64,000 nucleotides of DNA from Spirochaetales bacterium. GTDB lineage: Bacteria > Spirochaetota > Spirochaetia > SZUA-6 > RPPD01. The stretch's first letter is position 1; every line of letters starts with the position of its first letter. Made by a program: the position numbers and the translations under genes. This document shows positions 2,063 to 52,546 of this stretch, piece by piece. The stretch lies in contig JAFGSW010000086.1 of NCBI GenBank assembly GCA_016934415.1, positions 2,042 to 66,041 of the forward strand, read 5' to 3'. The notes beneath the pieces are model-generated. The model ran no database searches. It was not told the DNA's origin and saw only the letters and a list, made by a program, of their open reading frames with translations.

Positions 2063-5000
2063 TATTTGACCACCGTGACCCACTGACCGGGCAGGCGCGA
2101 TTGGATCGTGGCGTCGTACATCGCCTCCACGCTCTGTATGGGGAGGTAGAATTTTCCCAGGTAACTCGCGTTGAGCAGAACCTGGAAGGTCTTCGTCTCG
2201 TCCCGCGCCAGGTCGAAGAAAATATTGACCCGGTCGTCGCGCACATCGAGGTAATCGTAGGGCGAGTTGACCGCTCCGCCCGGTCCCTCCATGCGCAGGT
2301 TATGGATCTCCCAGCCGGAAGGGAAGAGAGCGGACAGGGCGAGCGTCTGCAGGGCCCGGCCGCTTGAGTTTCTCACCGTGATCACCGCCATGAGGTCGGT
2401 GCCCTGCTCAAGCGATTCGATCGACACCGCTTCTCCCTTGAGCCCCCGGTAGGAGACGTCGAGACTTAATCCGTTCGCCGACGGCTTCTCCCGCCCCGGC
2501 TCCGGCAACCCTTTGGCGAAGACGCGGACGAAGAGCGTCTGCCCGCCCGAGTTCGCCACCGTCACCCTCAGGTTGGCGCCGTTTCCGACCGGCAGAGGGA
2601 TCTGCATGACGGGCGCGCCGCTCTGTTTGGACGTCGGGGCGGCCGAGCCCGCGGCGTAGCTGAACTTCATGAGCCCGTCGCCCTGCCGCACGCCGGCGAA
2701 GCGCGCCATGGCCACCAGGCAGTAGGCCGTGGCCTGCGTGGAGAGCCAATCGTCCCGGCACAGGGCGTCGGATATCTCCTGAACGAGCTTGTCGGCCTGC
2801 GAGTAATTGTTCATGAGGGACATCGTTTCGAGGACGATCGCCTTGTCCCTGAGGTCCGAGCCGTAGGTGCCCGTGAGCTCGTGATAGACGCGGAAAACGA
2901 TGCGCTGGACGGCCGTGAGTTGGGAGGCGGCTTCTTTCTGGCCCGCGAGGGTGTAGGCGGCCGCCAGGTACCAGCGCGCGGTAACGGAGAGGTTTATCGA
3001 CTCGCGCAGCCGGTTCATGGATCCGATCTCGGGCGTGCCGTTCAAGGCCAGCCCGTAGAGGCGGTAGGCCTGGGTGAGCTGGCCGCTCTCGTCGCCGGGG
3101 CTCCAATTGAGGGCCCGGTTCTTCTGGTATTTCCGCCATTGGGAAAGCATCGCCTCGGGCACGTGGTAGGCGAGGCGCTTGGCCTCGAGCAGGAAGTGCC
3201 CGGCGTAGTTGCTCCCCCACTCATCGCTTTTACCGGCGCCGGGCCAGTAGCAGAATCCGCCGTCCGAATTCTGGAAAAACATGAGGCGGCTGATGCCGGC
3301 CTCGACGTTTCGCTGGACTGATTCCGCCTGCTGCGGGGAAAGCTCGAGGAGCTTGGGCAGGTAAAGCTGGGGGAAGACCGACGAGGTCGTCTGCTCGATG
3401 CAGCCGTAGGGGTAATGGATGAGGAAGTCGAGGCGCTTTCCCAGGTTGAGCGGCGGGATGCGCGAGACCTCGAGGGTCGCCTCGTTGGTGCCGGGGAGGC
3501 CCGGCAGCGCGACGTCCTTGACCGCCGTCTGGCCCGCGCCGACGGCCTGCGAGTGGACGTCCACCACGGGCAGGGCGGGCACCCGCACGTCGAATTCGAT
3601 CTTCTGGGAGATGCTCTCTCCCGCGCCGGACGCGTCGATGGCCACACTGGCGACGCCGGTCCGGTTCGCGGCCTTGAGCCGGAAGTTGAGCATCCCGTCT
3701 CCCGGTTCCTTGAAGGCGATGGTCTGGACGGCGGCCCCGTCGATCGAAACCGGTCCCTGGACGCTCACCTTTACGTTGACGTTTTTCAGCTTCGCCTCGG
3801 TGGCGAAAACGGCCACCGGCAGCGCGAACTCCTCGCCGACGGCGACGCTGCGCGGCAGGGTGCCCTGCACCATGAGGGGTTTCTTCACCGTGACCGTTTT
3901 TTCCGCGGCGCCGAAAGCCCGGCCATTGCCGGCCACGACCATCACCCGCACCGCGCCCACGTACAGCGGGATGTCGACGGTGTGGGTGCGTTTGACGCCG
4001 GCGGCCAGCGTGAACGGGCCGTAGAAGCGCACCAGGGGCGGGAAGCGTTCGGCCTTGCGGCCCTTGTCCGGCAGGAGGTCACCTTCGCCTCCGCCGATGG
4101 CGAGCAGCTGTTCGAGCTTGCCGCCGTAGGCAGCGGCGACGTAATCGTAGAGGTCCCAGGTGCCCACAGCGATCGCCTGTCGCTTGAAGAACAGGTCCCA
4201 CGGATCGGGCGTGGCGTAGCGGGTGAGTCCGAGCAGGCCCTCGTCAACCACGGCCAAGGTGTACGTCATGGCTGCGCCCTGCCGCTCGCTCACCGTGACC
4301 GCCGCCTTCGATTCCGGCTTAAAGACGTCGGTGCAGGCGATGGCGGGCTTCAAGTGCGTCGCCGGATTTTCCACCATCACCGGCAGGAATCCGTAGAGGC
4401 GGATGGGCATGTCGTTGCCCGTGCGCATGTGCGGCTGGAGGTAGGTGACGTGTGCGTAGATATTGGGCGCCATCTCGGCCGCGGCCGTGAACGAATAACG
4501 GTAGGTTTGATCGCTGGCCGCCGGCGTGAAATATTCGGTGGAGAGGATCTTTCCGCCGGCTTCGATGCACACCACGCCCCGGCCCTGCGGGGCGACCGGG
4601 ATGTTGAGGGTGATCTTGTCGCCGACGGCGTACTTTTCCTTGTCGGCGGAGAAGGTGAGCATGTTCGCGCCCGGCGAACCTTCAGCCTGGGCCCGGCCGG
4701 CCCAGCCCGGCCAGTCGATGTAAACGATTTTACCGGTGTTGTGGTTGCCCTCGAGGTCGCTCACATGGACGAAGAACCGGCCCCACTGGGGGTATTTGAC
4801 CTCGAACCGCCACGAGCCGCGGCCGTTTTTAAGCTCCACTACGTCGCTGTCCATCGGCTGGTAATCGGAGGTGCCGACGTAATTCGCCAGGTCTTCCTCT
4901 TCTTTCTCCCACCACCAGCGCCAGCGGATCTTGTACAGCTCGACCTTGACCCGCGCATTTTTAACCGGTTTCCCGTCCTGGTCGACGGCCATCAGGTCCA

Positions 5001-8039: not shown

Positions 8040-9773
8040 TTATCGCTCTTGGATTTTAAACACGGCGTGAACCGGGATCGATTTGGTGAGCGCGGCCGAA
8101 AAGGACGGCATGCGGTCGGGCTCCTCGCTCTTGACGCCGATGTAAAACGAGCGGCTTTCTCCGACGGCGAACATTTCCGGCACGGCTTCCGCCCGATAGG
8201 TTCCGAAGGGATTGATGCACACCGCTGCCGGCCGATGCGCGCCTTTTTTCCCACCCGGGACGACCCGGGCTTCAAGGAGGCCCACCGGTTCGGATTTATG
8301 CGCGACGTATCCGAACACAAGGCGCATTCCCGGGCGGGCGACCGAGAACACCGTACCCGCCAGCGTCGTCGAGACGTCCGCGCCGGTGAAAACGGTCTTT
8401 GCCGAGCTGCCGTCGGCGTAGAGACGGGTGATTTCGAGCGGTGCTTCCGGGGAGCACGCGCCGACCGGGATTTCAAGCGGCGCGACTGCGGCAATGCGTT
8501 CGAGCTGGGAAGAGGGACGGCCCAGGCACAAGCCGGAAATGAGGAGCCACGGGATCTCCCCCGAAAAGGCGTAACGAAGAGTGAAGGAATGCTCGTGTCC
8601 GGAACCGGGAAATAAAACGAAGGCCTCAAGACCCCGCAGATCGTTTTTCTCGAATGAGAAGACCCGGTCGAACGGAAGGGGCGCCTCCCTGCCTCCGAGC
8701 GCCGCCCAGGCGCGCGGCGCGCCCGAGGGCAGAAGGCTTGCCCCGCCCGTCCGTAGATCGGAAAGGCGGCCGCCCGAGAAAAAAGCGTCGAAACCGTTTC
8801 CGGGGAGGAGTATCTCTCCCGGCATGTTGGCGGTGTAGGCGGTGCCTTCGCGCGCGGCCGGCTTCGCCTTCAATTCCGACCGCGCCTTTTCGGCCTCGTG
8901 CGGTTCCCCGGCGGTGAGGAGGAGAAGGTCGCGCATCTCGCTGTCTTTCAGCTGCGTTTTGGCGCGCAGACGGGCGGCCTGGTCGCGAAGGCTGCGCAGG
9001 AGAGGGGTGTCGGCGATCGCGGCCGGAACGGACGGCGAGCGGGGCGCCCTTTCGCCCGCGGGCGGCGGCGTTTCGGCGGGGCTCTCGAACGCGGCGATGA
9101 CGAGGTCGCGCCGTTGACGCAGCGCCTCGATCAGGGAAATGAGCGCGGCCAGGGTTTCGGGACCGTCGGGGGCGACGAGGAGGAAGAGGCGATCGAGGTC
9201 GCGCGGGAAAAACGACCGGGCAAGGCGAGTCGGATCGGCGGTAACGCGCGGGTCCAAACACAAATAATGGAAGACCGTGATTCCGTCTCCGGACGCTTCA
9301 CCCCGGAAGCGGTAGACGGGTGAACCTTGAGGAAGCGGCGCTCCGAGAAAGCGGAAGCCCTGACGGCGGTACAATTCCACAACCTTTTCACGGTTGAAAT
9401 CGGCCCATGCCGGGATGAGGACATCGGGCTGCTTCCGGAACACGTCGTAGACGCCGCTTTTCCAGGGGTTGCGGATCGACCACTCCAATTCGCGGGAGAC
9501 CTCGTTCACGCCGAGGAGCGGGTGGGGAGCGCCGCCGTACCCCGCCGGGATGACGGTGTCGCCGATCCGGGCCAGGCGCGCCTTGATCTCCGCGACGAGC
9601 CGGTCGCGGCCGGCGCTCCGTTTTTCGAGGGCCGCACCCGACGCCAGCACCCAGTTGAGGGGACTCCGGTCGAAGGTTTCGAGAAACGACTCACAGACCG
9701 CGATCGGCTCCCGAACGCCGTCATTCCGGACGGCCAGCCCGATATGGAGATGCAATTCCCGCTTTTTCGCCAT
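8040..9773 (-). CDS. Hypothetical protein (577 aa), no confidently recognisable domain
   Basis: Long ORF with realistic composition. Its start is divergent from groEL. No motifs I can name with confidence; a GH57/polysaccharide-deacetylase-like fold was considered and dropped. Confidence 0.5.
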   Translation of the reverse strand: MAKKRELHLHIGLAVRNDGVREPIAVCESFLETFDRSPLNWVLASGAALEKRSAGRDRLVAEIKARLARIGDTVIPAGYGGAPHPLLGVNEVSRELEWSIRNPWKSGVYDVFRKQPDVLIPAWADFNREKVVELYRRQGFRFLGAPLPQGSPVYRFRGEASGDGITVFHYLCLDPRVTADPTRLARSFFPRDLDRLFLLVAPDGPETLAALISLIEALRQRRDLVIAAFESPAETPPPAGERAPRSPSVPAAIADTPLLRSLRDQAARLRAKTQLKDSEMRDLLLLTAGEPHEAEKARSELKAKPAAREGTAYTANMPGEILLPGNGFDAFFSGGRLSDLRTGGASLLPSGAPRAWAALGGREAPLPFDRVFSFEKNDLRGLEAFVLFPGSGHEHSFTLRYAFSGEIPWLLISGLCLGRPSSQLERIAAVAPLEIPVGACSPEAPLEITRLYADGSSAKTVFTGADVSTTLAGTVFSVARPGMRLVFGYVAHKSEPVGLLEARVVPGGKKGAHRPAAVCINPFGTYRAEAVPEMFAVGESRSFYIGVKSEEPDRMPSFSAALTKSIPVHAVFKIQER

Positions 9774-9923: not shown

Positions 9924-11606
<1,683 letters not shown>

Positions 11607-11675: not shown

Positions 11676-11940
11676 GTCGATAAGGAAGCCAGGAACCCAG
11701 GAAAGGAGGAATGGGAAAGGAAGCGAGGAAACAGGAAAAGACAGAAGGGAGAAGGTGAATCAATTAAAATTTTTCAATTCTTGCTTTCAAAATTGTCAGA
11801 AACTTCGTCTGGCACTTTGCTTTTTCCTCTTACCAGCAGGGTGTTGTTCGTGTCATATGGGTTTTCTTCTTTGCCCTGCTCTTCTTTTTATTCGGTGTCC
11901 TCTTTTCCTCACCTGTCCTTCCTGGTTTCCTTATTGATCC
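11676..11940. mobile_element. MITE/Correia-like AT-rich intergenic element, copy E1 (~265 bp)
   Basis: Left end gtcgATAAGGAAGCCAGGAA, right end (revcomp) gatcaATAAGGAAACCAGGAAgg. Purine-rich left half and pyrimidine-rich right half, so the whole element is a long imperfect palindrome. The ORF 11668..11937 inside it is spurious. Confidence 0.6.
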
Positions 11941-19802: not shown

Positions 19803-19851
19803 GGCCAGAAGGAGAACTACGGATAGCACGGATGAAACTGATGAGGAAGGG

Positions 19852-20023
19852 GAAGAATAAATAAGGAAACCAGGAAGCCGGGAGAATGGAAAAATACTAT
19901 AAGCATCTACTGAAGGCCGATCATCGATTTTGTGAAAAGAGCACATGCGAAGCAATACATAAAGATTTCCATAACAAGTCGCCTCTTTTTTCATAGTTTC
20001 CTGGCTTCCTTATTGACTTCTTC
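19852..20023. mobile_element. MITE-like element copy E2 (~170 bp)
   Basis: Left gaagaaTAAATAAGGAAACCAGGAAgcc, right (revcomp) gaagaagTCAATAAGGAAGCCAGGAAac. Lies about 55 bp upstream of the membrane-protein gene start. Confidence 0.6.
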
Positions 20024-20075
20024 CTCTCTGGCACAAGGAAAAGAAACGTGCTACATTGAAGCCCTTGGAGCGACT

Positions 20076-21111: not shown

Positions 21112-21130
21112 AGTTCATCACGAAGAACAC

Positions 21131-21366
21131 GAAGAAGAAGAAAGGAAGCTCAGGAAACCAGGAAACCAGGAATAGAAGTGAAGAGAGAATGGAATAAAAC
21201 AAGGTGGAGCGTAGAATAATAGAGACATAAAACAGAAAATTTATTACTGGGGGGAGGTGATATGAAAAAAAACACATTCATGTTGTTTGTGTCCGTCTTG
21301 AACACTATAATTAGGTATAAACGAAAACAAGCAGGAAGAAAGAAGATGTGTTTTTCCTGACTACTT
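21131..21366. repeat. Probable degenerate MITE-like copy E4
   Basis: Left gaagaagaagAAAGGAAGCTCAGGAAACCAGGAAACCAGG. AT-rich body. Right end tttttcctgactacttg (revcomp caagtagtCAGGAAAAA) matches only weakly. Confidence 0.35.
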
Positions 21367-31967: not shown

Positions 31968-32007
31968 TCGCCGCTGCTTCACTCTGTAAACGCTCCTCCC
32001 TGAAGAG

Positions 32008-32150
32008 TTTATAAGGAAACCAGGAAACCAGGAGAAAACGAAGAAAATTGACGCATTCGATACAATAATTTCAGATTCAATAGTAATTTTGATGGCATAT
32101 TTTTTTACTATTTCTCTTTCGATTGCTTTTTCCTGGATTCCTTATTGACC
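32008..32150. mobile_element. MITE-like element copy E3 (~143 bp)
   Basis: Left tttATAAGGAAACCAGGAAACCAGG, right (revcomp) ggtcaATAAGGAATCCAGGAAAAAgc. Flanked on both sides by tgaagag (32001-32007 and 32154-32160). Confidence 0.6.
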
Positions 32151-32205
32151 TCTTGAAGAGGAGTCGCTGAAATGAGATTATAGTCAAAAGTCAGGTTATT
32201 ATATG

Positions 32206-34518: not shown

Positions 34519-37500
34519 ATGCCTAAATTATCGGACATCGAAAAACTCAAGGATATCGTCGACGGTCTCGGCCAGGAGAGGGAAATCCGCGCCAAGCGCG
34601 GCGAGCAGGTCGAAGAAATCGCGCCGCCCGAGCAGGCGCTTTCCTCTGAGGACCTCGATTCCCTTCTCGGGACCGGAGAGTCCGAAGATGCTGCCGGTAC
34701 GCCCCGGCCGACCGAGGAGGTGATTGCCGACGCGCTGGAGGCGGTCGGCTCCGAGGACGCCCAGATAGACGACATTTCGCAGGCCCTGGAGGAAACGGGC
34801 GTCAGCGAGCCGTCTTCCGAGGATACCATGGGACTCGATGTACTCCCGGAAGCTTTCGGCGAGGAGCCGGGCCAAGCCCTGGAGGCTGCTTCGGGCGAAG
34901 AAAGACTAGGAACGGCGTTCGAGGAATTCGAGCTCCCCGATTTCGGCGGAGCCGAGGGCTCAGTGCTCGATGAGGCGGCCGCGGGAGCCGCCCTGGAAAC
35001 TGCCGCCGAACCGGTATCGGAAGCGGTCGAGGAGTTTTCCCTCCCGGAAGACCCCGGCGAAGCGCCCAAACCGACGGAGCCGACTACCGTACCGATTGAA
35101 GAGTTCTCCCTCCCGGAAGGCCTCGGCGAAGCGCCCGAACCGACGGAGCCGACTGCTGTGCCGGTCGAGGAGTTCTCCCTCCCGGAAGGCTTCGGCGAAA
35201 CGCCCGAGCCGGCGGAGCCGACAACCGTTTCGATTGAAGAGTTCTCTCTCCCCGGCGGCCTCGGCGAAGCGCCAGAACCGGCGGAGTCCGCGGCTGAGCC
35301 GGCACCGACTTTCGATCTCTCCGATTTCCAGATCTCCGAGTCTTTTGCCGGCGGTGAGAGCGATGCGGACAAACTTTTCGAATCGGTCCCTGAAACGCCG
35401 GCCGAACCCGCACCGGTGGAAGCCCAGGCCGAAGCGATGGAGGGCCTTCAGGAAATCGAAGCCGGAATCCCCGAAATAACCGGCGAGCCTTCGCCTTCGG
35501 CCCCGGAAACGGGAGGGTTCGAGTTCCCCGATCTGGGCGGCCTCGGCGGACCCGAAACCGAGCCGGGAGAGCCACTACCGTCTTTCGAAACCGAGATTCA
35601 GCCGCAGGCCGAGGAGGGCGAATTCGGCGGGGTGGAGGACAAGCTTTTCGACCTCCCCGAGGGGGAGGACTTCACCGCCGCACCCGCACCGTCGGGCGCT
35701 CCGCCGCCCGGCGCCGAACCGGAGGAGGCCGGAGCTTTCGCCGGCTTCGAAATGCCCGATCTGTCGGAGATCGGCGGCGCCTTGGAAGCGGAACCGCCGG
35801 CGCCCGGGGGGCAGGAGGAAGCCGGGGGGCCGCAGGACGAAGGGCTCGACATCATCGATACCGGTCAATTCGCGATGCCCGAGTTCGAGGGGCGGACGGC
35901 CCCTCAGGCGGCGGAAATACGCGAACTCGGGGAGTCGGGCGCTCCCGAAGAGCTGGCCGGCGCCGAAGACGACCTTCAATTCTCCCAGCACGACTTCGAC
36001 AACATCAAGGCCACCCTGGCCATCCTTCCCCTCAACCTGAAGATCGCCGTCGAGGACCTCATCGCGGATCATGGCCTGCAGGGCCCGAGACTGAGACGGC
36101 TCCTCGACGCGCTCATTGCCGGCGAATCCCCAAAGGCCGTCGCCGCCATCGTTTCCAGCATCACCGGCCGGAAAATCGTTCTGCCCAAAAGCTTCGAAAA
36201 GAGGTCCGGCATCGCCTTCGAGCGGGAGCGGGAAAGTTTCGCCTATTTCCTGCGCACCAAGGGCGCCCGGGCGGCTCTTTTCGCCGGCGCGGCGATCGTC
36301 ATCCTGTTCCTGCTCGCCTACGGGGCCTACGTGCTCGTGTTCCGCCCGCTTTCGGCCGTCGCCGTCTACGACAAGGGCTACGAGGCCATCCAGAAGGACC
36401 TGTACGAGGAGGCGCGGCGGAAATTCGACGAGGCCTCCCGCATCTGGGACTCGAAGGACCAGTATTACCGTTACGCCGAGGCCTTCGTCGCGAGCGCGGC
36501 GGGGAACTACCGCTACGCCGACCAGATGTACCGTATGCTCCTGCGGCGCTACCCCGGCGACGTGAAGGGCATGATCGATTACGCGCGCCTGGAGACGCTT
36601 CAGGGAAATTACGCCCACGCGGATTCGCTCCTCGAAGACGGGGTCCTCAAGCGCGAGCCGTACAATTACGACGCCCTGGCCGCCTGCGCGGACAATTACC
36701 TGACCTGGGCCGAGGAGGACGATTCGAAACTGAAGGACGCCCAGTACTATTACGCGACGCTCGCCGAACATTACCGGGAGCGGACCGCCGCCCACCTTAA
36801 ACGGATCGATTTCCTCATCCGCTCGGAGCGCATCGCGCGGAAGCAGGGCCTGTCCGACGTCGACAATACCAACCTCGTGATCGCCTATGCCGGTTTTCTC
36901 AAGAAAAAAGGCTGGGACCTCGTGGACCCGGCCGTGTACACCGAGATGGCCTCATACCTCATCGACAAGAACGAAACCGACCTCGTGCCCGAGCTTCTCG
37001 AAAAGACGCGAGCGGCCGACCCCGGGTACGCGCCGGCCTGGTACGAGACGGCCCGTAACGAGCGGTTGGCGGGGAAGACCGAAAACGAGCGGCGGGCGCT
37101 GGAAAAGGCCATCGATTTGTTTCGGAACTCCGAACAGGGGAACGCACGCGGCTTCCAGCTCGCCGCCGAGCGGCGGAACTCGCTGGACCGATCGGCCATG
37201 CTGGTGCTCGCGTTGAACCGCCTCGGAGAATACTGGATCGATCAGGGCAAGCCGGAACGCGCCGAAGACCTCCTGCTCGACGCGCAGCGGCTCTACGAGC
37301 AGTCCGCCTCCAGGCTGCAGACCACCCGCTTCGCCTCGGGCGGCGCGTTCGGGCGGCTCTATTACAACCTGGGGAACATCGCCCTCGGCGCCGGGAACGA
37401 CGAGCGCGCGCTCGCCATGTTCTCGGCCGCGGAAAAAAACGGGTTCACCAGCCCGGACCAAACGTACAAAAAGGGCTTTGTTCTCTACCGGCGGAAGGAT

Positions 37501-42396: not shown

Positions 42397-44628
42397 TCAC
42401 TTTCTCTTTTTCCCCCGGTCCTGACCGCGCGCCTGAAACATCAGTCCGGCGATCGAGGCCAGCGACGCGAGCATGAGAAGAATCCGCACCGGCAGGGGAT
42501 TGGCGATCGACTCCGCACCTCCGTACAAAAGGCACATTGCGACGATGAGGGCGGCGATGAATCCCCCCGCCTTCGCCGAGAGGGCGGCGGCGAAGAACAT
42601 CGGGTCCCGTCGTTCATTTGTTTTATCTCGCGCGGTGGCGGCCGCGTCGGCGGTGAAGAGGAGGGACAAGGCGAGGAGCAGGGCGATGGGAAAGGCGAGG
42701 AGAATCAGGGCCGCCAGGCCCCAGATCCAGGGCAGGGGATACCGGTAGGTCGTTACGCGTCCCTGGGCGAGCTCCGTGACGCCGCTCGCGGTCACGAACC
42801 AGGTCGAGCCGTTACGCGCGAAGAGCACGTCCTCCACCTTGTCGGCGGCCAGCCCGTCGGCCCGCGTCAGGACGCGTTTCCCCGCCGGGCCGGAGATGAA
42901 GCAGCCTGAGTCGGTGGCGACGAACAGCCGGCCGTCGGGAGCGGTTCTGATCGCGCGGACTGCGTCGCTCGGCAGGCCGTCGGCGCTCGTCAGATAAGTC
43001 CAGGCGGTTCCGGAAAGGCGGGCCACGCCCCGGTACGTACCCAGGAAGACGACGCCGTCCTCGCCGATTTCCAAGGAAGTGATCGTATCATCCTTCAGGC
43101 CCTTTCCCGTTGTGTACTCGGTCCAGTCGGACCCGCTCAGGCGATAGGCGCCCCTTTCCGTGCCCACCCAGAGATCGCCCTCCGGGCTCAAGCCGAAGGC
43201 GGTGAGCGGCGCCGCGGGATCTTTCCCGCCGGGCCGCTTCGGCGCGAATTCCACCCAGCGCGAGTTCTCGCGGTCGAGGAGCGAGACGCCGACGGGCGTC
43301 AGGAACCAGACGGCGCCGCCGCGCTGCATCACGGCGATCACCCGGTTGTCGATCAATCCGGAGGCCTTGGAATAGTGGGTCCAGGCCGCGCCGTCGAAGA
43401 AGCTGGCGCCGCCTTCCGTGGCGAACCAGACGCCGCCGTCCCCGGCCGAGATCGAATTGATGCGGTCGTCGATCAGCCCCTCCCGCCGGGTGACCTGCGA
43501 CCAGGCGCCCGCTGCGAAGCGGGAGGCGCCGCGCTTGGTGCCGATCCAGACGCCGCCGTCGGGAGCCTGGGCCGCGGAGACGGCGCAGTTCCAGCGCAGG
43601 CCCGATTCGTCGGGCGCGAATCCGGTCGCGGCGAGGACGAGAAGTCCCGCGGCGAGCGCGGCCGATCCCGCCACGCCCAGCTTTCTCTTGTCCAGTTTCG
43701 CCGCAAGCGGCCGGAGGAACGGCGGGAAAATGAGCCCCGCCGCCAGGAAGGCGACGACGGAAAGGCGTGTGAATTCCGCGTCCACGAGCATCAGGTCCCG
43801 GCCGACGAAATAAAGCGACGCGGCCAGGGCGGCGAGCGCGAAGGATACGCACGCTTCGGCGCGCAGGAAGCGGGAGAAGGCGCGGTGTGACGCCGCCGTC
43901 CTCAATGCGCGCGCGGCGGCCGCGGGAAAAGACGCGTCGTGCCGCCGGGATGAATCTTTGGCCGGCTTCTCGCGCACGGTGAAGAAGGCGACGCTCACGA
44001 TGACGGCCGCCGGGAGTATCAGGAGAAAGACCGACCACTGGAACGAAGCGGTCGGGTCGAGGCCGGGGAACATGGTGAAGAAACCGGGGAGGAGGGCGAC
44101 CGGGAGGAGCGCGCCCGCGAACAGCAACGCGGTCTGGAGCGCCGCCAGGGACGCGCGATCCGCATCCACGGGCAGACTCGAGTAGCCCAGCGACAGGTAC
44201 GGAGCGAACGATACGGCCGCTCCGGCGCCCGCGGCCAGCGAAAAAAGGAACACCAGGACGAGGTTGACCGCGGCCGGACCGGCCGCGAACGGCAGAAAAA
44301 CCAGAAGCGAGGAAAGCGCGAGCAGCGGCAGGCCGGCGAGGAGAAACGCCCGGCGTCCGCCCAGAGCCGTGCGTGATCTGCCGGCTTGAAAGGCGGCGAG
44401 CGGCGAGACGACCGCGAAGGCGAGAAGCCCGAGGAGCGCGGCAAACCAGAGGGAGCGGATGTTGTCCGGGGGAAGTGCGGGCAGAAAGCGGGGCAGGCCG
44501 TCCTTGAGGCGTTCGAGCGGTGGTGAGAAAAACGCGGCGCCGCCCGCCGTCAGGGAGACGAGGATCAGGCCGTAGCCGGCGGTGGAGAACGCGTACAGAA
44601 AGAATCGTAGCCCGCGTAATCGTTTCAC
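42397..44628 (-). CDS. Polytopic membrane protein (MFS-like N-terminal ~9 TM) with a periplasmic beta-propeller of two-component-regulator-propeller-type repeats and 3 C-terminal TM helices
   Basis: Likely GTG start at 44628 with a GAGGAGG RBS; the ORF-track N-terminus MLYFILVYFIV is translated promoter DNA. Repeats DGGVWIGTKRGASRF / DGGVWFATEGGASFF / DLWVGTERGAYRL. Ends 8 bp before the GH31 start. Confidence 0.6.
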   Translation of the reverse strand: MKRLRGLRFFLYAFSTAGYGLILVSLTAGGAAFFSPPLERLKDGLPRFLPALPPDNIRSLWFAALLGLLAFAVVSPLAAFQAGRSRTALGGRRAFLLAGLPLLALSSLLVFLPFAAGPAAVNLVLVFLFSLAAGAGAAVSFAPYLSLGYSSLPVDADRASLAALQTALLFAGALLPVALLPGFFTMFPGLDPTASFQWSVFLLILPAAVIVSVAFFTVREKPAKDSSRRHDASFPAAAARALRTAASHRAFSRFLRAEACVSFALAALAASLYFVGRDLMLVDAEFTRLSVVAFLAAGLIFPPFLRPLAAKLDKRKLGVAGSAALAAGLLVLAATGFAPDESGLRWNCAVSAAQAPDGGVWIGTKRGASRFAAGAWSQVTRREGLIDDRINSISAGDGGVWFATEGGASFFDGAAWTHYSKASGLIDNRVIAVMQRGGAVWFLTPVGVSLLDRENSRWVEFAPKRPGGKDPAAPLTAFGLSPEGDLWVGTERGAYRLSGSDWTEYTTGKGLKDDTITSLEIGEDGVVFLGTYRGVARLSGTAWTYLTSADGLPSDAVRAIRTAPDGRLFVATDSGCFISGPAGKRVLTRADGLAADKVEDVLFARNGSTWFVTASGVTELAQGRVTTYRYPLPWIWGLAALILLAFPIALLLALSLLFTADAAATARDKTNERRDPMFFAAALSAKAGGFIAALIVAMCLLYGGAESIANPLPVRILLMLASLASIAGLMFQARGQDRGKKRK

Positions 44629-47951: not shown

Positions 47952-50324
47952 ATGAATCGCATGAAAGGCATCGGCGCGCTGCTCAAGGCATTGACCCTGG
48001 AGGAAAAGGCCTCCCTCATCATCGGGGCCGGGAATTGGACCACGGCGGCCGTGCCCCGTCTCGGGATCCCGTCGCTCTTTCTGGCCGACGGGCCGCACGG
48101 CGTGCGCCGCGTCGTGGACGAGCAGGGGCTGGGCATTCCCGGGCTGCCGGCCACCTGCTTCCCCACCGCCTCCTGCCTGGCCTCGACCTGGGATACGGCC
48201 CTCGTCGAGGAGCTGGGCCGGGCCCTTGGCGGCGAGGCCAAAGCCCTGCGCGTCGACGTCCTGCTCGGGCCGGGCGTCAACGTACGGCGCACGCCGCTGG
48301 GCGGGCGCAATTTCGAGTATTTTTCGGAGGACCCGTGCCTGGCCGGGGAGCTCGCGGCGGCGTTCATCCGCGGGGTGCAGAGCCGGGGCGTGGGGACCTC
48401 GCTCAAGCACTACGCGGCCAACAACCAGGAGTACGAGCGCTTCACCGTCGACGCCGTCGTCGACGAGCGCGCGCTGCGCGAGATCTACCTCGCCGCTTTC
48501 GAGACCGCGGTGAAAAAAGGCGCGCCCCGCACCGTGATGGCGGCCTACAACCGGGTGAACGGCGTGCGCGCCTGCGAGCACGCCGCGCTCATCGACGGAG
48601 TGCTGCGGCGCGAGTGGGGTTTCGACGGGGTCGTCGTCTCCGATTGGGGCGCGGTCAAGGACCGGGTCGTCTCATTGAAAGCGGGCCTGGATCTGGAGAT
48701 GCCCGGCCCGCGAAAGGACCGTCGCCGCGCCGTGGTGAGGGCGGTCAAGTCGGGAGCGCTGCCTCCGCGCGTTCTCGACCGGGCCGTGAGGCGGGTTCTG
48801 CGCCTGGCGGCGGCCTGCGCCGCGACATCCAAGGGCGGCGCGACGGATTGGGAGGCCCATCACTCGCTCGCCCGCCGGATCGCCGGGGAGGGTTTCGTGC
48901 TGCTGAAGAACGAGGGCGTGCTGCCGCTCGGCGATCCCGTGCGCGTCGCCGTCATCGGCCGCTCCGCCCCCGAGCCGTACGTCCAGGGCGGCGGCAGCTC
49001 CCGCGTCGCCGCCCGCCGCGTCGACGTCCCCCTGGACGAGATTCGCGCCCGGGCGGGCGGGGCGGAAGTATCTTTCTGTGAAGGATACCCGGCGGGTCCG
49101 GTCATCGATCAAAGGCTCGTGGACGAGGCGGCCGAACTCGCCCGCCGCGCCGAGGTCGCTCTTGTCTTCATCGCCCTCGACGAATTCGTCGAGTCCGAGA
49201 GCTGCGACCGGACGACGACCGATCTCCCGGCGAACCGGGTCGCCCTCATCAAGGCCGTGTGCGCCGCCCAACCGCGGACGGCGGTCATCCTCGGGAACGG
49301 GGGTGTGGTGACGATGGAGGAGTGGATCGACGGGGCCCCGGCCGTGCTCGAGACCTGGATGGCGGGCGAGGCCGGGGCCGGGGCAATCGCCGACGCGCTC
49401 TGGGGGGACGTCAATCCCTCGGGGAAGCTCCCGGAAACCGTGCCGCTCCGCCTGGCCGACACGCCGGCCTTCATCAACTACCCCGGCGAGAACGGCCGGG
49501 TGCGCTACGGCGAGGGGTTATTCGTCGGATACCGCTATTACGATTACCGGGGCGCGCCGGTGCGGTTTCCCTTCGGTCACGGCCTCTCCTATACGACCTT
49601 CGAGTACGGCCGGCTTTCATTCTCGGAGACGTCGTTCAAGGACGCTGACGGCCTCACCGTTTCGTTCGAGATCGCCAACACCGGAACGCGGGCGGGGAGA
49701 GAAACGGCGCAGGTGTACGTCCGCGACGTCCGCGCCTCGCTCGCGCGGCCGGTTAAGGAGCTCAAGGCCTTCGTCAAGACGGCGCTCGAGCCGGGCGAGC
49801 GGAAGGCGATCTCGGTTCATCTCGATTTCCGCGCCTTCGCCTTCTACCATCCGGGACTCGGCCGCTGGGTCGCCGAGAGCGGCGAGTTCGAGATCCTCGT
49901 CGGCTCCTCGGCCGCCGACATCCGCCTGCGGGGCGCGGTGCGGCTGCGCTCGACCGCAGGCGAACCGAGTTTGCTCGCCCCCGGATCGTCGGTGCGCCTG
50001 TGGCTGGACGACGAGCGCGGCGGTCCGCTCGTGCGGCCGCTCGTGGAGAAAATCGAGGCCGCGCTCTCGAAGGAGGGTGGCGGCGGGATGCTGGGATTTA
50101 TCCTGGAATCGCCGCTCGAGCGCCTCCTCCGCCAGTGGGAGGAGCCGCTCGCCCTCAACGCCGACGAGACAATGGCGGATATCATGCGGCGACTTCACGG
50201 GAAGTTTTCCGCGCCAAAACAGCCACGGAGACCCGGAGGACACGGAGGAGGAAAAGGAAACAATAAGGAAGCCAGGAAACCAGGAAAAAGGAATCTAGGA
50301 AAAGGGATCCAGGAAAAGAAATAG
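47952..50324 (+). CDS. Glycoside hydrolase family 3 beta-glucosidase whose last ~20 codons and stop are supplied by a MITE-like element
   Basis: GH3 motifs (GFDGVVVSDWGAV; KHYAANNQE). The tail ...NNKEARKPGKRNLGKGIQEKK* is encoded by aataaggaagccaggaaaccaggaaaaagg... Confidence 0.9.
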   Translation: MNRMKGIGALLKALTLEEKASLIIGAGNWTTAAVPRLGIPSLFLADGPHGVRRVVDEQGLGIPGLPATCFPTASCLASTWDTALVEELGRALGGEAKALRVDVLLGPGVNVRRTPLGGRNFEYFSEDPCLAGELAAAFIRGVQSRGVGTSLKHYAANNQEYERFTVDAVVDERALREIYLAAFETAVKKGAPRTVMAAYNRVNGVRACEHAALIDGVLRREWGFDGVVVSDWGAVKDRVVSLKAGLDLEMPGPRKDRRRAVVRAVKSGALPPRVLDRAVRRVLRLAAACAATSKGGATDWEAHHSLARRIAGEGFVLLKNEGVLPLGDPVRVAVIGRSAPEPYVQGGGSSRVAARRVDVPLDEIRARAGGAEVSFCEGYPAGPVIDQRLVDEAAELARRAEVALVFIALDEFVESESCDRTTTDLPANRVALIKAVCAAQPRTAVILGNGGVVTMEEWIDGAPAVLETWMAGEAGAGAIADALWGDVNPSGKLPETVPLRLADTPAFINYPGENGRVRYGEGLFVGYRYYDYRGAPVRFPFGHGLSYTTFEYGRLSFSETSFKDADGLTVSFEIANTGTRAGRETAQVYVRDVRASLARPVKELKAFVKTALEPGERKAISVHLDFRAFAFYHPGLGRWVAESGEFEILVGSSAADIRLRGAVRLRSTAGEPSLLAPGSSVRLWLDDERGGPLVRPLVEKIEAALSKEGGGGMLGFILESPLERLLRQWEEPLALNADETMADIMRRLHGKFSAPKQPRRPGGHGGGKGNNKEARKPGKRNLGKGIQEKK
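50262..50300. repeat. Left terminus of a partial or truncated MITE-like element copy E5 overlapping the GH3 3' end
   Basis: AATAAGGAAGCCAGGAAACCAGGAAAAAGG. No convincing right terminus found downstream. Confidence 0.4.
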
Positions 50325-50645
50325 GGAAACTGAAAAGGGGAATGAAGGAAATAGATATGCTTATCGCTTTTTTACCGAAATCCTTCCCTGATTTTTCCAA
50401 AACTCTTCCTTTTTTTTTCAAGTTCCGATTATAGGTACGAGTGTATGGTGATTCGCATTCTCCAGACCGGATTATCTTTTCCATTTTTCTTCTTCTTTAT
50501 CCGTGTCATCCGTTCCTATCCGTGGTTCCCTCCCTCGTTGAATGAATGCCGCGAATTGTGTTCCCCCGCAAAATGCTATATAATGATGGCATCAACCGTC
50601 GGCATGAGCCGGACACCCGCACTTCCACCGGAGAAAGGAACGACG

Positions 50646-51836
50646 ATGATGACTGCTTTTTCCGCAACCAGGAAATACTTCTGCCTCGTCCTTGCGGCGG
50701 CGCTGTTTTTGGGCGCCGCGGGGGGGGCGTACGCCCAGGGGAAGGCCGTGAAGATCGGCTTCGTGAAGATCGAGAACTCGAGCGAAGACCCGCGCTACGA
50801 CTACCTCGAGGGTATCGTGAGCGGCACCCTGCTCTACGACCTGTCCAACGCCCCGGGACTCGTCGTCGTGGATCGGGCCTTGCTTGACAACATCCTCAAG
50901 GAGCAGGAGCTTATTTTAAGCGACCTGGTCAAGGCCGACAACGCCGTCCGCGTCGGGAAGATTCTCGGCGCCGACTACCTCCTCAAGGGCGATTACGTTT
51001 TCCTCGGAAACGAAATCCGGCTGAACGTCTCCATCATCAACGTGGAATCGGCCAAGACCATGACCTTCAAGGAGACCGGCTCCACGGAAAACCTGGTGCA
51101 CGCCGTGTGCGAGCGGATCATCGAGCGCCTCACGGGCAACCAGGTCGCCCTGCGCTCGGACGAGCACGACCGGTCGATCATCTCGCTCAAGGACGAGAAG
51201 CCCGGTTCGATCGGCCTGTTCTGCAACCTCATCGACGCCGAAATTTTCGTGGACGACCAGTTCGTCTGCTACTCCACGGGCAAGGCCAACGTGCCGAGCG
51301 AGCTCACCGGTCTGAAGCCGGGCAAGCACACGGTGCGCGTCCGCCTGACGGGCTTCGGCGTGGTCAAGGCGCCGGAGATCACCTTCTCCGACTGGCAGCA
51401 GGCGGTGGACGTGAAGCCGGGACAGCGGCAGGTGGTCCGCGCGCAGATAACACTTTTCACCTACCAGCTCTACGACCTGCAGAAGCTCCTCTCCGACCAC
51501 GTCCGGATCGAAGCCGCGGATTTCGGCAAGCCCTTCTCCAAGGAAATGGAATTCGAATACGTCGACCGCGCAAGCAAAAAGCACAAAGGAAATCTGAAGC
51601 TCTCGCTCGCCGCCGCGGAAGCGCAGGCCGAGCTCAAGGCCGAGCTCACTCTCGACGGAAAGAAACGTTCGTACTCGCTCACATGCCCGGCCAAGAAAAG
51701 GACGAAGAGCGATGAAACCTTCGGCAAGGTGGATATTAAACTTGAGTTGGACTACTACTATCCCGACCGTTATTGCCGAATAGAATATCGCGTCACGCGG
51801 AACGACATCAGCCAGGACATGTGGCACAAGGAATAG
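50646..51836 (+). CDS. Secreted protein with an N-terminal CsgG-like domain
   Basis: Start MMTAFSATRKYFCLVLAAALFLGAAGGAYAQG (signal peptide) with a GGAGAAAGGAA RBS; the ORF-track start at 50445 is an extension. Pattern VKIGFVKIEN...DRALLDNILKEQELILSDL...VGKILGADYLLKG...IRLNVSIINVESAKTM resembles the CsgG fold. Confidence 0.65.
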   Translation: MMTAFSATRKYFCLVLAAALFLGAAGGAYAQGKAVKIGFVKIENSSEDPRYDYLEGIVSGTLLYDLSNAPGLVVVDRALLDNILKEQELILSDLVKADNAVRVGKILGADYLLKGDYVFLGNEIRLNVSIINVESAKTMTFKETGSTENLVHAVCERIIERLTGNQVALRSDEHDRSIISLKDEKPGSIGLFCNLIDAEIFVDDQFVCYSTGKANVPSELTGLKPGKHTVRVRLTGFGVVKAPEITFSDWQQAVDVKPGQRQVVRAQITLFTYQLYDLQKLLSDHVRIEAADFGKPFSKEMEFEYVDRASKKHKGNLKLSLAAAEAQAELKAELTLDGKKRSYSLTCPAKKRTKSDETFGKVDIKLELDYYYPDRYCRIEYRVTRNDISQDMWHKE

Positions 51837-51873
51837 CAGGCTGTTGAAAAAGTTGAGCTTTTTCAACAGCCTG
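51836..51873. repeat. Palindromic hairpin H4 overlapping the last base of the TAG stop of the CsgG-like gene
   Basis: gcaggctgttgaaaaag-ttgag-ctttttcaacagcctg. 16-bp stem, no trailing T-run. Confidence 0.7.
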
Positions 51874-51900
51874 ATGGAACGATATATTGTCGCGTTCAAG

Positions 51901-51932
51901 GCCCGCCGCGAAACGTGCGGGCTTTTTTTTTT
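51901..51932 (+). terminator. Rho-independent terminator
   Basis: gcccgc-cgcgaaacgt-gcgggc followed by a T10 run. Confidence 0.7.
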
Positions 51933-51942
51933 ATGAAAATAC

Positions 51943-51975
51943 TATAAGGAATCCAGGAGATAAGGAAGCCAGGGA
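51943..51975. repeat. Solo duplicated MITE-terminus motif E6
   Basis: ctATAAGGAATCCAGGAgATAAGGAAGCCAGGGaaaaaa. Confidence 0.35.
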
Positions 51976-52546
51976 AAAAAGACCGAAAAAAGCCGATTCC
52001 CGTCAGTCATAAAACTTCTCAGTTGGTGTATTATTTCTGAATAAAATAAAAATGTACGGGAAGCGCGCTGAAACTGCGGGTGTGAAAAACGGCACGACAG
52101 TGGCATTGCAGTTTTCGAAACGGAGAGACCGGACCTATGTTTTTTCGCGACTGCCGCGCCGGAGCTTGTGGGATTTTCCCCGTCGCGTTGTGCAGTTGAT
52201 CGGACAAGGATCGCACCCCGGTCCGAAAATTGATGACCCGACCGTCCCTCGGCGGGTTAATATACCAGGCACCGGTCGGGGCCCCGTCTTCCGGGGCACC
52301 CCGTCCCTGAGGGATCCCGTCCCCGGTTCCCCGGCCGGTTTTTTTTCACCGCCTTGACGAACACCGTTATTTCCCTCCACTATTGAACCGCGCCGTCTTG
52401 AATCGTTGTGTGCGTCGGTCGGGTTCGGGGCGGTGCAATGCCGTCCGGAACCCGGTGCCGGCCGGAAACGGCGGATTGACAGGTGAGGGGAAATTCATTA
52501 GTTTCATTCCCTGATCCGTCGCAGCGAAAGCCTCCATGGAGCATGT

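Follow-up and report, generated by a model that had tools for sequence, protein, structure and literature searches.

Several small bacterial repeats, among them Correia/NEMIS, ERIC, RUP and BOX, are likened to miniature inverted-repeat transposable elements (MITEs). Rickettsia palindromic elements (RPEs), which Ogata et al. are said to have described in 2000, are reportedly translated within a host protein without destroying it. Intervening sequences (IVSs) of 23S rRNA with an S23p-type open reading frame (ORF) are found in Leptospira as well as in Coxiella. The Coxiella IVS is a 428-nt selfish element with a small ORF (S23p) and is excised from the precursor by RNase III (PMC4990558). Repetitive extragenic palindromes (REPs) are sequences of 20-40 nt with a GTAG or CGTC tag (PMC3733652). 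They are lineage-specific. The present analysis concerns the 3' end of a GH3 beta-glucosidase gene in a 64-kb stretch of Spirochaetales DNA (the window, meaning the whole stretch that was analysed). The gene runs into a repeated hairpin element, probably old and empty, whose arms belong to a family that flanks GxxExxY genes in other genomes, and the basic tail of its product is probably a by-product. An earlier interpretation of the letters (the sequence-only reading) had described a recent, MITE-like insertion that replaced the native C-terminus.

The GH3 ORF occupies 47952-50324 on the forward strand, encodes 790 residues and closes with TAG at 50322-50324. Family membership was borne out by matches to PF00933 (5.6e-43), PF01915 (3.7e-50) and PF14310 (2.2e-23), and the protein is 58-71% identical to many annotated beta-glucosidases. 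An identical protein with a matching C-terminus is held at NCBI (P0001, from a metagenome-assembled genome labelled 'Spirochaetales bacterium'). The C-terminal end reads ...NNKEARKPGKRNLGKGIQEKK (longer stretch, ...GKGNNKEARKPGKRNLGKGIQEKK). Homologues (8000) were scored and an alignment of C-terminal parts was made, as the sequence-only reading had suggested. Homologues from outside the clade, among them Chloroflexota and Meiothermus, align over 88-96% of the query; among the best 120 of the 8000 they are mostly 744-770 residues long. All aligned sequences run together up to ...RRLHG, with the G encoded at 50199-50201. Outside-clade homologues stop 0-11 residues past HG, and the window protein adds 40 residues (50202-50321) that form a Lys/Arg/Gly-rich extension, in keeping with the Lys/Gly-rich tail noted earlier. 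Because the outside-clade homologues end so soon after HG, the tail is best regarded as an extension, and the claim that a native C-terminus had been replaced is not supported. The following features were assigned to the locus.

47952-50201 (+), homologous part of the GH3 beta-glucosidase gene; NCBI model start 47961; Pfam Glyco_hydro_3, Glyco_hydro_3_C and Fn3-like.
50202-50222 (+), seven codons (KFSAPKQ) that separate the homologous part from the element, unaligned to any outside-clade homologue.
50223-50249 (+), left arm, outer module of three CACGGAG-type units (CCACGGAGA CCCGGAGGA CACGGAGGA), translated PRRPGGHGG.
50263-50286 (+), left arm, inner module (ATAAGGAA GCCAGGAA ACCAGGAA), translated (N)KEARKPG and conserved in the orthologous locus L001.
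50287-50324 (+), further GGA units, degenerate, closed by TAG at 50322-50324, the first stop in frame.
50325-50459 (unstranded), AT-rich interior, 34-41% GC, with no recognisable cargo; delimited by composition and unalignable to L001.
50460-50525 (+), decayed right arm: vestigial inner module, pyrimidine run and outer-module complement ATCCGTGTCATCCGTTCCTATCCGTGG (50499-50525).
50551-50600 (+), conserved upstream region of the CsgG-like gene, outside the element, with TATATAAT at 50577-50584 (blastn with L001, 79.6% identity).
50646-51836 (+), downstream CsgG-like lipoprotein gene (Pfam CsgG), syntenic in L001 and in a second orthologous locus, L002.

The inverted-repeat element spans approximately 50223-50525 and has a purine-rich left arm, of which aataaggaagccaggaaaccaggaaaaagg at 50262-50291 lies within the 3' end of GH3. 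The start at approximately 50223 was set by comparison with other copies, and approximately 33 of the 40 non-homologous codons are left-arm sequence. The sequence-only reading had thus correctly recognised that the ORF reads into a genuine repeat and that the tail and stop codon are translated element sequence, with GH3 homology ending approximately 40 residues before the stop; its estimate of approximately 20 element-derived residues was too low. The outer module (50223-50249) pairs with 50499-50525 in the predicted fold and is separated by a short A-rich spacer from the inner module, which is an exact match to ATAAGGAA-NCCAGGAA(-NCAGGAA). The reverse complement of the right arm resembles both the GH3 left arm and the left arm of the window copy at 19861. 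GC content is approximately 61% across the window and approximately 60-79% in coding DNA near the locus, vs approximately 42% at 50236-50564, with 100-nt segments down to 34%. No canonical terminator was found between GH3 and the next gene, and the displacement of an original terminator suggested by the sequence-only reading is putative.

The core motif ATAAGGAARCCAGGAA is present in six intergenic regions of the window. A search for AATAAGGAARCCAGGAAVCC on both strands, allowing up to three mismatches, returned eight matches vs 0.00 expected (100 shuffles), and a looser scan located sites at 11680/11919, 19861/19998, 21149, 32011/32130, 50263 and 51944/51960. The copies other than that beside GH3 are as follows.

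11680-11934 (unstranded), two-armed copy with a distinct interior.
19861-20013 (unstranded), two-armed copy with the outer module in its left flank (CTACGGATAGCACGGATGA...).
21149-21172 (+), solo left arm preceded by CACGAAGAACACGAAGAAG.
32011-32145 (unstranded), two-armed copy, the best preserved.
51944-51975 (+), two solo left-arm units in tandem, past the terminators that follow the CsgG-like gene; none was found at the corresponding L001 site.

Three clear inverted pairs (11680, 19861 and 32011) enclose 135-255 nt of AT-rich sequence that differs in each copy, and the repeat families detected in the window cover the arms only and not the interiors. The order of outer module, spacer and inner module recurs at 19820-19880 and 21120-21172. 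All six copies lie downstream of a gene end and between co-directional genes; those at 11680 and 51944 are placed after ordinary terminators. Well-preserved copies fold into a terminal stem (z = -4.4 for 31993-32163 and z = -3.9 for 19845-20030). In the minimum-energy fold of the GH3 copy, 50223-50260 is paired with 50480-50525, at a stability no better than shuffles (z = -1.2); the complement of the outer module is clear and that of the inner module is vestigial. The GH3 copy is decayed, as judged from these two properties against the scores of the well-preserved copies.

Syntenic orthologous loci were recovered from two genomes, L001 (71% protein identity) and L002 (66%). In both, the gene order is a periplasmic-binding/HD-domain regulator (-), GH3 (+) and the CsgG-like gene (+). 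The GH3 3' end of L001 reads ...CCACAGAGACGCAGAGGACACGGAGAAGAAAAGAGAAAAAGGCTAAGGAAACCAGGAAGCCAGGAAG... and carries the left arm at the position equivalent to that in the window. Blastn aligns the window with L001 (76.6% nt identity) across the arm as far as 50289 and again from 50551, with a break at the interior. Within the left arm 51 of 62 nt are identical, vs 28 of the 53 aligned nt (53%) in the stretch just upstream (50170-50222, including the KFSAPKQ codons). A 2-nt indel places the first 14 or so arm codons in different frames (KQPRRPGGHGGGKG in the window, KTTETQRTRRRKEK in L001), after which both tails read KE(A/T)RKPG. L002 has a shorter Lys-rich tail and purine-rich DNA that partly aligns with the outer module and is without the core motif; another gene follows at once. 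Since L001 has the same arm at the same place, the insertion would be older than the divergence of the window lineage from that of L001, and probably older than that of all three lineages. The proposed recency of the insertion was therefore not sustained, and the uninterrupted 3' end that might have been sought in related genomes is replaced by an arm in L001 and a remnant in L002. Since the first part of the tail is read in different frames from conserved DNA, its amino-acid sequence is not what is conserved.

The composition of the arm accounts for the continuation of the ORF. The 71 nt from 50223 contain one T only, and there are almost no stops in any frame of the left arm because it is nearly T-free. 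Any frame of DNA rich in GGA, GAA, AAG and AGG gives K, R, G and E, hence the character of the tail. Reading on from 50202, the three frames first meet a stop at TAG 50322 (the GH3 frame), TAG 50296 and TAA 50264, the last within ATAAGG. An ORF that enters the arm has approximately a one-in-three chance of stopping at ATAAGG and otherwise continues. Consistent with this, loci of other genomes include at least ten ORFs on the same strand whose end falls precisely on the ATAAGG TAA or overlaps the motif by its first base.

The proposed sequence of events is as follows. An old, cargo-less and partly decayed hairpin-type element occupies the intergenic region between GH3 and the CsgG-like gene, and would have arrived by insertion in a common ancestor. 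It abuts the natural end of GH3, which has no stop codon of its own before the element, and the ORF runs through the arm to the first in-frame TAG to give the 40-residue Lys/Arg/Gly-rich tail. The tail would be a neutral, tolerated by-product. In the transcript, the arms could pair into a long imperfect stem that might be cut or act as a 3' barrier, by analogy with the 23S rRNA IVSs.

The distribution of the arm was assessed by scanning one genome per species for the 17-mer ATAAGGAARCCAGGAAR. At least 116 loci were obtained, with 127 exact instances among the matches listed. The raw count was rejected as evidence, given that approximately 280 chance matches are expected in 596 Gb and that some matches are rpsH coding sequence (DKEARK). 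A third NCA(G/T)GA unit follows in 52 of the 127 listed instances (approximately 0.25 expected), and an inverted partner (up to two mismatches, within 500 nt) accompanies 47 of the 127 (approximately 0.06 expected). One or other of these features marks 56 loci among the matches listed, from at least nine phyla: Planctomycetota, Verrucomicrobiota, Spirochaetota, Thermodesulfobacteriota/Syntrophaceae, Chloroflexota, Armatimonadota, Sumerlaeota, Lindowbacteria and Acidobacteriota. Many of these 56 loci are compact hairpins (45-67 nt); L021, for example, consists of ATAAGGAAGCCAGGAAACCAGGAA and TTCCTGGTTTCCTGGCTTCCTTAT on either side of a 13-nt loop. The outer module precedes the core motif at L014, L052, L074 and L081 (all Planctomycetota) and at L115.

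CAGGAA hexamers are nearly invariant in both arms, and the 2-nt spacers vary independently (paired in only 35-78 of 116 pairs, depending on position). Since the hexamers are kept while the spacers vary, conservation extends to the sequence and not merely to the stem, an indication that some protein or RNA recognises it. A CsrA or Hfq sponge was considered as an idea only: GGA recurs every 8-9 nt, CACGGAUG resembles CsrA sites, and GGA would be paired in the stem. A sigma-54 promoter in the right arm CTGGCTTCCTTATTGA (GG and TTG at -24/-12 spacing) was dropped, since other phyla lack the TTGA and arms are found in either orientation. Asymmetry between G-U and A-C was also set aside as an indicator of the transcribed strand, since paired arms are symmetric and the measure is not interpretable. 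According to crude ORF calls in the other genomes, 14 of 69 contexts are divergent gene pairs, with no depletion and no clear orientation bias. Rfam gave no matches in the window at gathering thresholds and no rRNA match; only sub-threshold microRNA and small-RNA noise was obtained on hairpins in seven loci and in 50100-52450. No description of the arms was found in Rfam or in the searchable open-access literature (searched with the sequences, GxxExxY/TIGR04256, and MITE plus phylum names).

A variant, CCATGAA in one arm opposite CCAGGAA in the other, was often seen, and in several phyla (L043, L045, L051, L059, L093, L098 and L101). It places an ATG a few bases past AAGGAA and, in short empty hairpins, forms a mini-ORF (ATG-AAA-CCA-TGA). 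At L026 this ATG is the start codon of a GxxExxY gene.

Five loci have a GxxExxY coding sequence, whole or fragmentary, next to the arm. The gene at L026 is intact and is flanked by arms (TIGR04256, E = 7e-40; PF13366 (PDDEXK_3), E = 3e-37). For the reverse test, 80 metagenomic GxxExxY loci were fetched. AAGGAANCCAGGAA (up to two mismatches) occurs within 110 nt upstream in 44 of the 80, its complement lies just past the stop in 44, and both are present in 39. Many of the remaining loci have tandem units of the outer module (CACGAAAG/CACAGAAG/CGCGAAAG) upstream and the complement downstream; CACGRAR-type comparisons were made at L143, L145, L152, L170 and others. Despite the bias of this sample, the association between arms and GxxExxY genes is far from chance. 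Both window modules occur at the flanks of these genes (TIGR04256/PF13366; approximately 125 residues), purine-rich upstream and pyrimidine-rich downstream. In some cassettes the start codon lies inside the arm (ATAAGGAAGCC-ATG-AAA-CCA-GGA), and in some the arm encodes the first residues (ATG-AAT-AAG-GAA-AAC-AGG..., MNKENRKTGK...), giving an NKExRKxGK motif common to those N-termini and the GH3 tail.

The window copies differ from these cassettes in having no cargo or remnant, and in the GH3 copy the right arm is decayed. No GxxExxY gene or remnant was found in the window elements by tblastn and profile hidden Markov model searches of six-frame translations (the positive control, L008, was detected). 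They are read as cargo-less shells of a GxxExxY-type hairpin cassette. No transposase was seen between arms in the loci read (a non-exhaustive search), where GxxExxY was the only cargo, and no solved structure for GxxExxY was found. As a tentative and rather speculative generalisation, the CCAGGAA/CACGGAG arms may be the ends of hairpin-enclosed mini-cassettes that spread horizontally across phyla. The arms would provide a ribosome-binding site and sometimes a start codon, a PD-(D/E)XK-like GxxExxY cargo would move or maintain the cassette, and cargo-less shells such as the six window copies would persist as MITE-like hairpins that reshape host 3' ends and possibly transcripts. Such a class would be one undescribed in Rfam and the searchable literature.

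Approximately 14 of the GxxExxY cassettes occupy one conserved site (L150, L168, L172, L175, L176, L178-L180, L182, L184, L185, L188, L189 and L195). The upstream gene there ends ...HDPGWEKAG and the downstream gene starts with MPNESSVPLFNVQIDGVWHQFPKGTRVIEAC (MPNE...VQIDG...), so that the cassette appears to lie inside an operon. The downstream gene was tentatively taken by eye to be nuoG-like. Close relatives of one GxxExxY locus (L120-L131, e.g. L122, L123 and L124) vary in the number of tandem left-arm units, some of which include first codons (ATGAATCCAGGAAAAGGATTAGAATAA), and in how many hairpins follow downstream, as if the units expanded and contracted like an array.

The 23S IVSs resemble GxxExxY cassettes in that a small ORF is enclosed by complementary flanks. 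They differ from the window element, which lies between protein-coding genes and not in rRNA, and the arm sequences are different (GTAGGGA, GGGAAAA and others in the cases read). Plasmid genes of the S23p family, annotated as four-helix-bundle protein or S23 ribosomal protein, were found wedged between nrdB and nrdA, cas6 and cas4, and cas10 and cmr3 in cyanobacterial and Gemmatimonadota replicons (L199-L203: NZ_CP054697.1, NZ_CP112875.1, NZ_AP014824.1, NZ_CP007129.1 and NZ_CP016476.1). They are preceded by purine-rich tandem oligomers, and in four of the five cases read the complement of these follows the gene. The units are lineage-specific: GTAGGGA, GGGAAAA, GAGGAGATAA and, at L200, GCTAAAA upstream and GCCAAAA downstream, where the downstream repeats are direct and not inverted. 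No four-helix-bundle gene was found beside CCAGGAA arms in the loci studied. Because the architecture is shared with the S23p-family and IVS cases, the arms would act as an RNA stem when transcribed, and might be cut by RNase III.

Like MITEs, the window copies are short and non-coding, bear terminal inverted repeats, are numerous between genes and occasionally remodel the ends of genes. The two-armed copies at 11680, 19861 and 32011 measure 135-255 nt and the GH3 copy approximately 300 nt, and there are six occupied intergenic regions in 64 kb. By eye, no target-site duplication was seen at ATAAGG...CCTTAT in the window copies or in the short hairpins L021, L039 and L083; any similarity that continues outward is inverted. 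No autonomous relative with a transposase and the same ends was found in the loci read, in a search that was not exhaustive. Interiors are not conserved and cannot be aligned even between the window and L001, and an arm sequence common to at least nine phyla is unusual for a MITE family. The term MITE-like, as used in the sequence-only reading, is apt for the inverted arms, small size and copy number; it does not fit the missing duplication and transposase partner, or arms that flank GxxExxY genes elsewhere. REPs and bacterial interspersed mosaic elements (BIMEs), which are associated with RAYT transposases, are likewise intergenic hairpin repeats, often in inverted pairs after gene ends; their GTAG/CGTC tag was not present in the arm sequences read, which consist of 8-nt units. 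RPEs are in frame inside ORFs and Rickettsia-specific, whereas the element described here is at the 3' end of GH3 and adds a tail and a stop.

Four other explanations of the locus were weighed. A recent MITE insertion that removed the native C-terminus and terminator of GH3 would explain why the tail and stop are element sequence and why inverted arms occur in many copies. It is scarcely credible, however, for an arm that occupies the same site in an orthologue of 71% protein and 76.6% nt identity, with a remnant in the 66% orthologue; the interior and right arm have decayed, and homologues end 0-11 residues past the homology break. Expansion of a simple purine sequence in place at several loci, with no element involved, is similarly improbable. 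The arms do consist of slippage-prone tandem units of 8-9 nt, and unit and hairpin numbers vary between related loci (L120-L124), but one particular sequence of 16-24 nt, accompanied by an inverted partner, turns up in many phyla far more often than chance would allow, and beside one gene family. An unlikely explanation is that the basic tail is a selected functional extension of GH3 in this clade, serving for example in localisation or polyanion binding, with a secondary resemblance at the DNA level. Lys/Arg-rich tails of approximately 20-42 residues are found in all three orthologues. Against this, the window and L001 read the first part in different frames, with DNA and not amino acids conserved, any frame of a tract rich in GGA, GAA and AAG gives K/R/G/E, and the same DNA is found in non-coding intergenic regions in both orientations.

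It is possible, though doubtful, that the arms are an RNA element used by the host, a stem in the 3' untranslated region (3'-UTR) with a part in the termination, stability or processing of the GH3 transcript and in its separation from the next gene, and kept on that account; this would be compatible with a selfish origin. The position of all six window copies after gene ends with co-directional neighbours would suit such a role, as would the lack of a canonical terminator after GH3, the long stems formed by intact copies and the conservation of the left arm but not the interior between the window and L001. IVS stems, moreover, are substrates of RNase III (PMC4990558). Conversely, the stem of the GH3 copy is at shuffle level, divergent pairs are not depleted in other genomes (14/69, a crude count), and the copies at 11680 and 51944 follow ordinary terminators. 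The two arms also have different spacers between CAGGAA hexamers in a share of pairs that ranges, by position, from about one third to over two thirds, so that sequence rather than pairing is conserved.

An old, empty hairpin element of the GxxExxY-flanking arm family, with the tail as a by-product, remains the probable explanation, and several observations weigh against it. The folding of the GH3 copy is at the shuffled level (z = -1.2) and its right inner module is barely recognisable. A basic tail is kept in all three orthologues, which could mean that it is tolerated or that it is useful. The 82% arm identity between the window and L001 is partly inflated by the two-letter purine composition, and the 80 GxxExxY loci are a biased sample that includes 13 close relatives of L026 and approximately 14 examples of one conserved locus. 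The label of empty cassette was given to the window copies from their arms by themselves, and the GH3 tail is a predicted translation. Mobility of the element is putative: no target-site duplication was seen, and no two sites were found that differ only in being filled or empty.

GH3 itself would be little changed, as a cytoplasmic-type beta-glucosidase with a probably harmless, disordered basic tail. The locus serves as a warning that K/R/G-rich protein ends annotated in such genomes can be translated repeat arms, and T-free arms would account for a whole class of ORFs that are spurious or extended in annotated metagenomes. A hairpin arm of 16-24 nt that occurs in nine phyla and is tied to one uncharacterised nuclease-like family offers a concrete handle on the function of GxxExxY, and on the spread and decay of small hairpin-enclosed ORFs of the 23S IVS type.

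As called mechanically, the CsgG-like gene is an ORF from 50445 that passes through the pyrimidine-rich right arm (FFFFFIRVIRSYPWFPPS). Its real start is indicated at 50646 by the signal peptide and by the conserved region upstream (50551-50600), so that arms can lengthen predicted N-termini and not only C-termini. In L002, an additional ORF with a signal peptide (8329-9260, with an N gap inside it) overlaps the GH3 stop as ATGA and occupies the space of the hairpin element in the other two genomes. In L001, a PEBP-family gene (10321-10944) follows the CsgG-like gene; the window (51872-52210) is without such a gene and has the solo units at 51944-51975 instead.

Other repeats and structured regions were noted in the window. 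A near-perfect palindrome of 42 nt, CAGGCTGTTGAAAAAGTTGAGCTTTTTCAACAGCCTG, occurs twice (2025-2066 and 51832-51873; 90% complementarity), with one copy directly after the CsgG-like stop and a match in L001 at 3442-3487 (82.6%). Its only Rfam match is sub-threshold and isrK-like (28 bits vs a gathering score of 50), and it looks like a second, separate repeated hairpin. The segment at 52210-52346 is GC-rich and non-coding, with nested stems, and ends in a terminator-like CCGGTTCCCCGGCCGG followed by a T run. A candidate small RNA or leader, it has no Rfam match and is 83% conserved with L001 10921-11052 despite differing neighbour genes. Two tracts of GC-rich, presumably coding tandem repeats were also observed, with a 69-nt period at 34955-35299 (at least four copies, 61-84% identity) and a period of approximately 120 nt at 42995-43560 (five copies, 60-72% identity).

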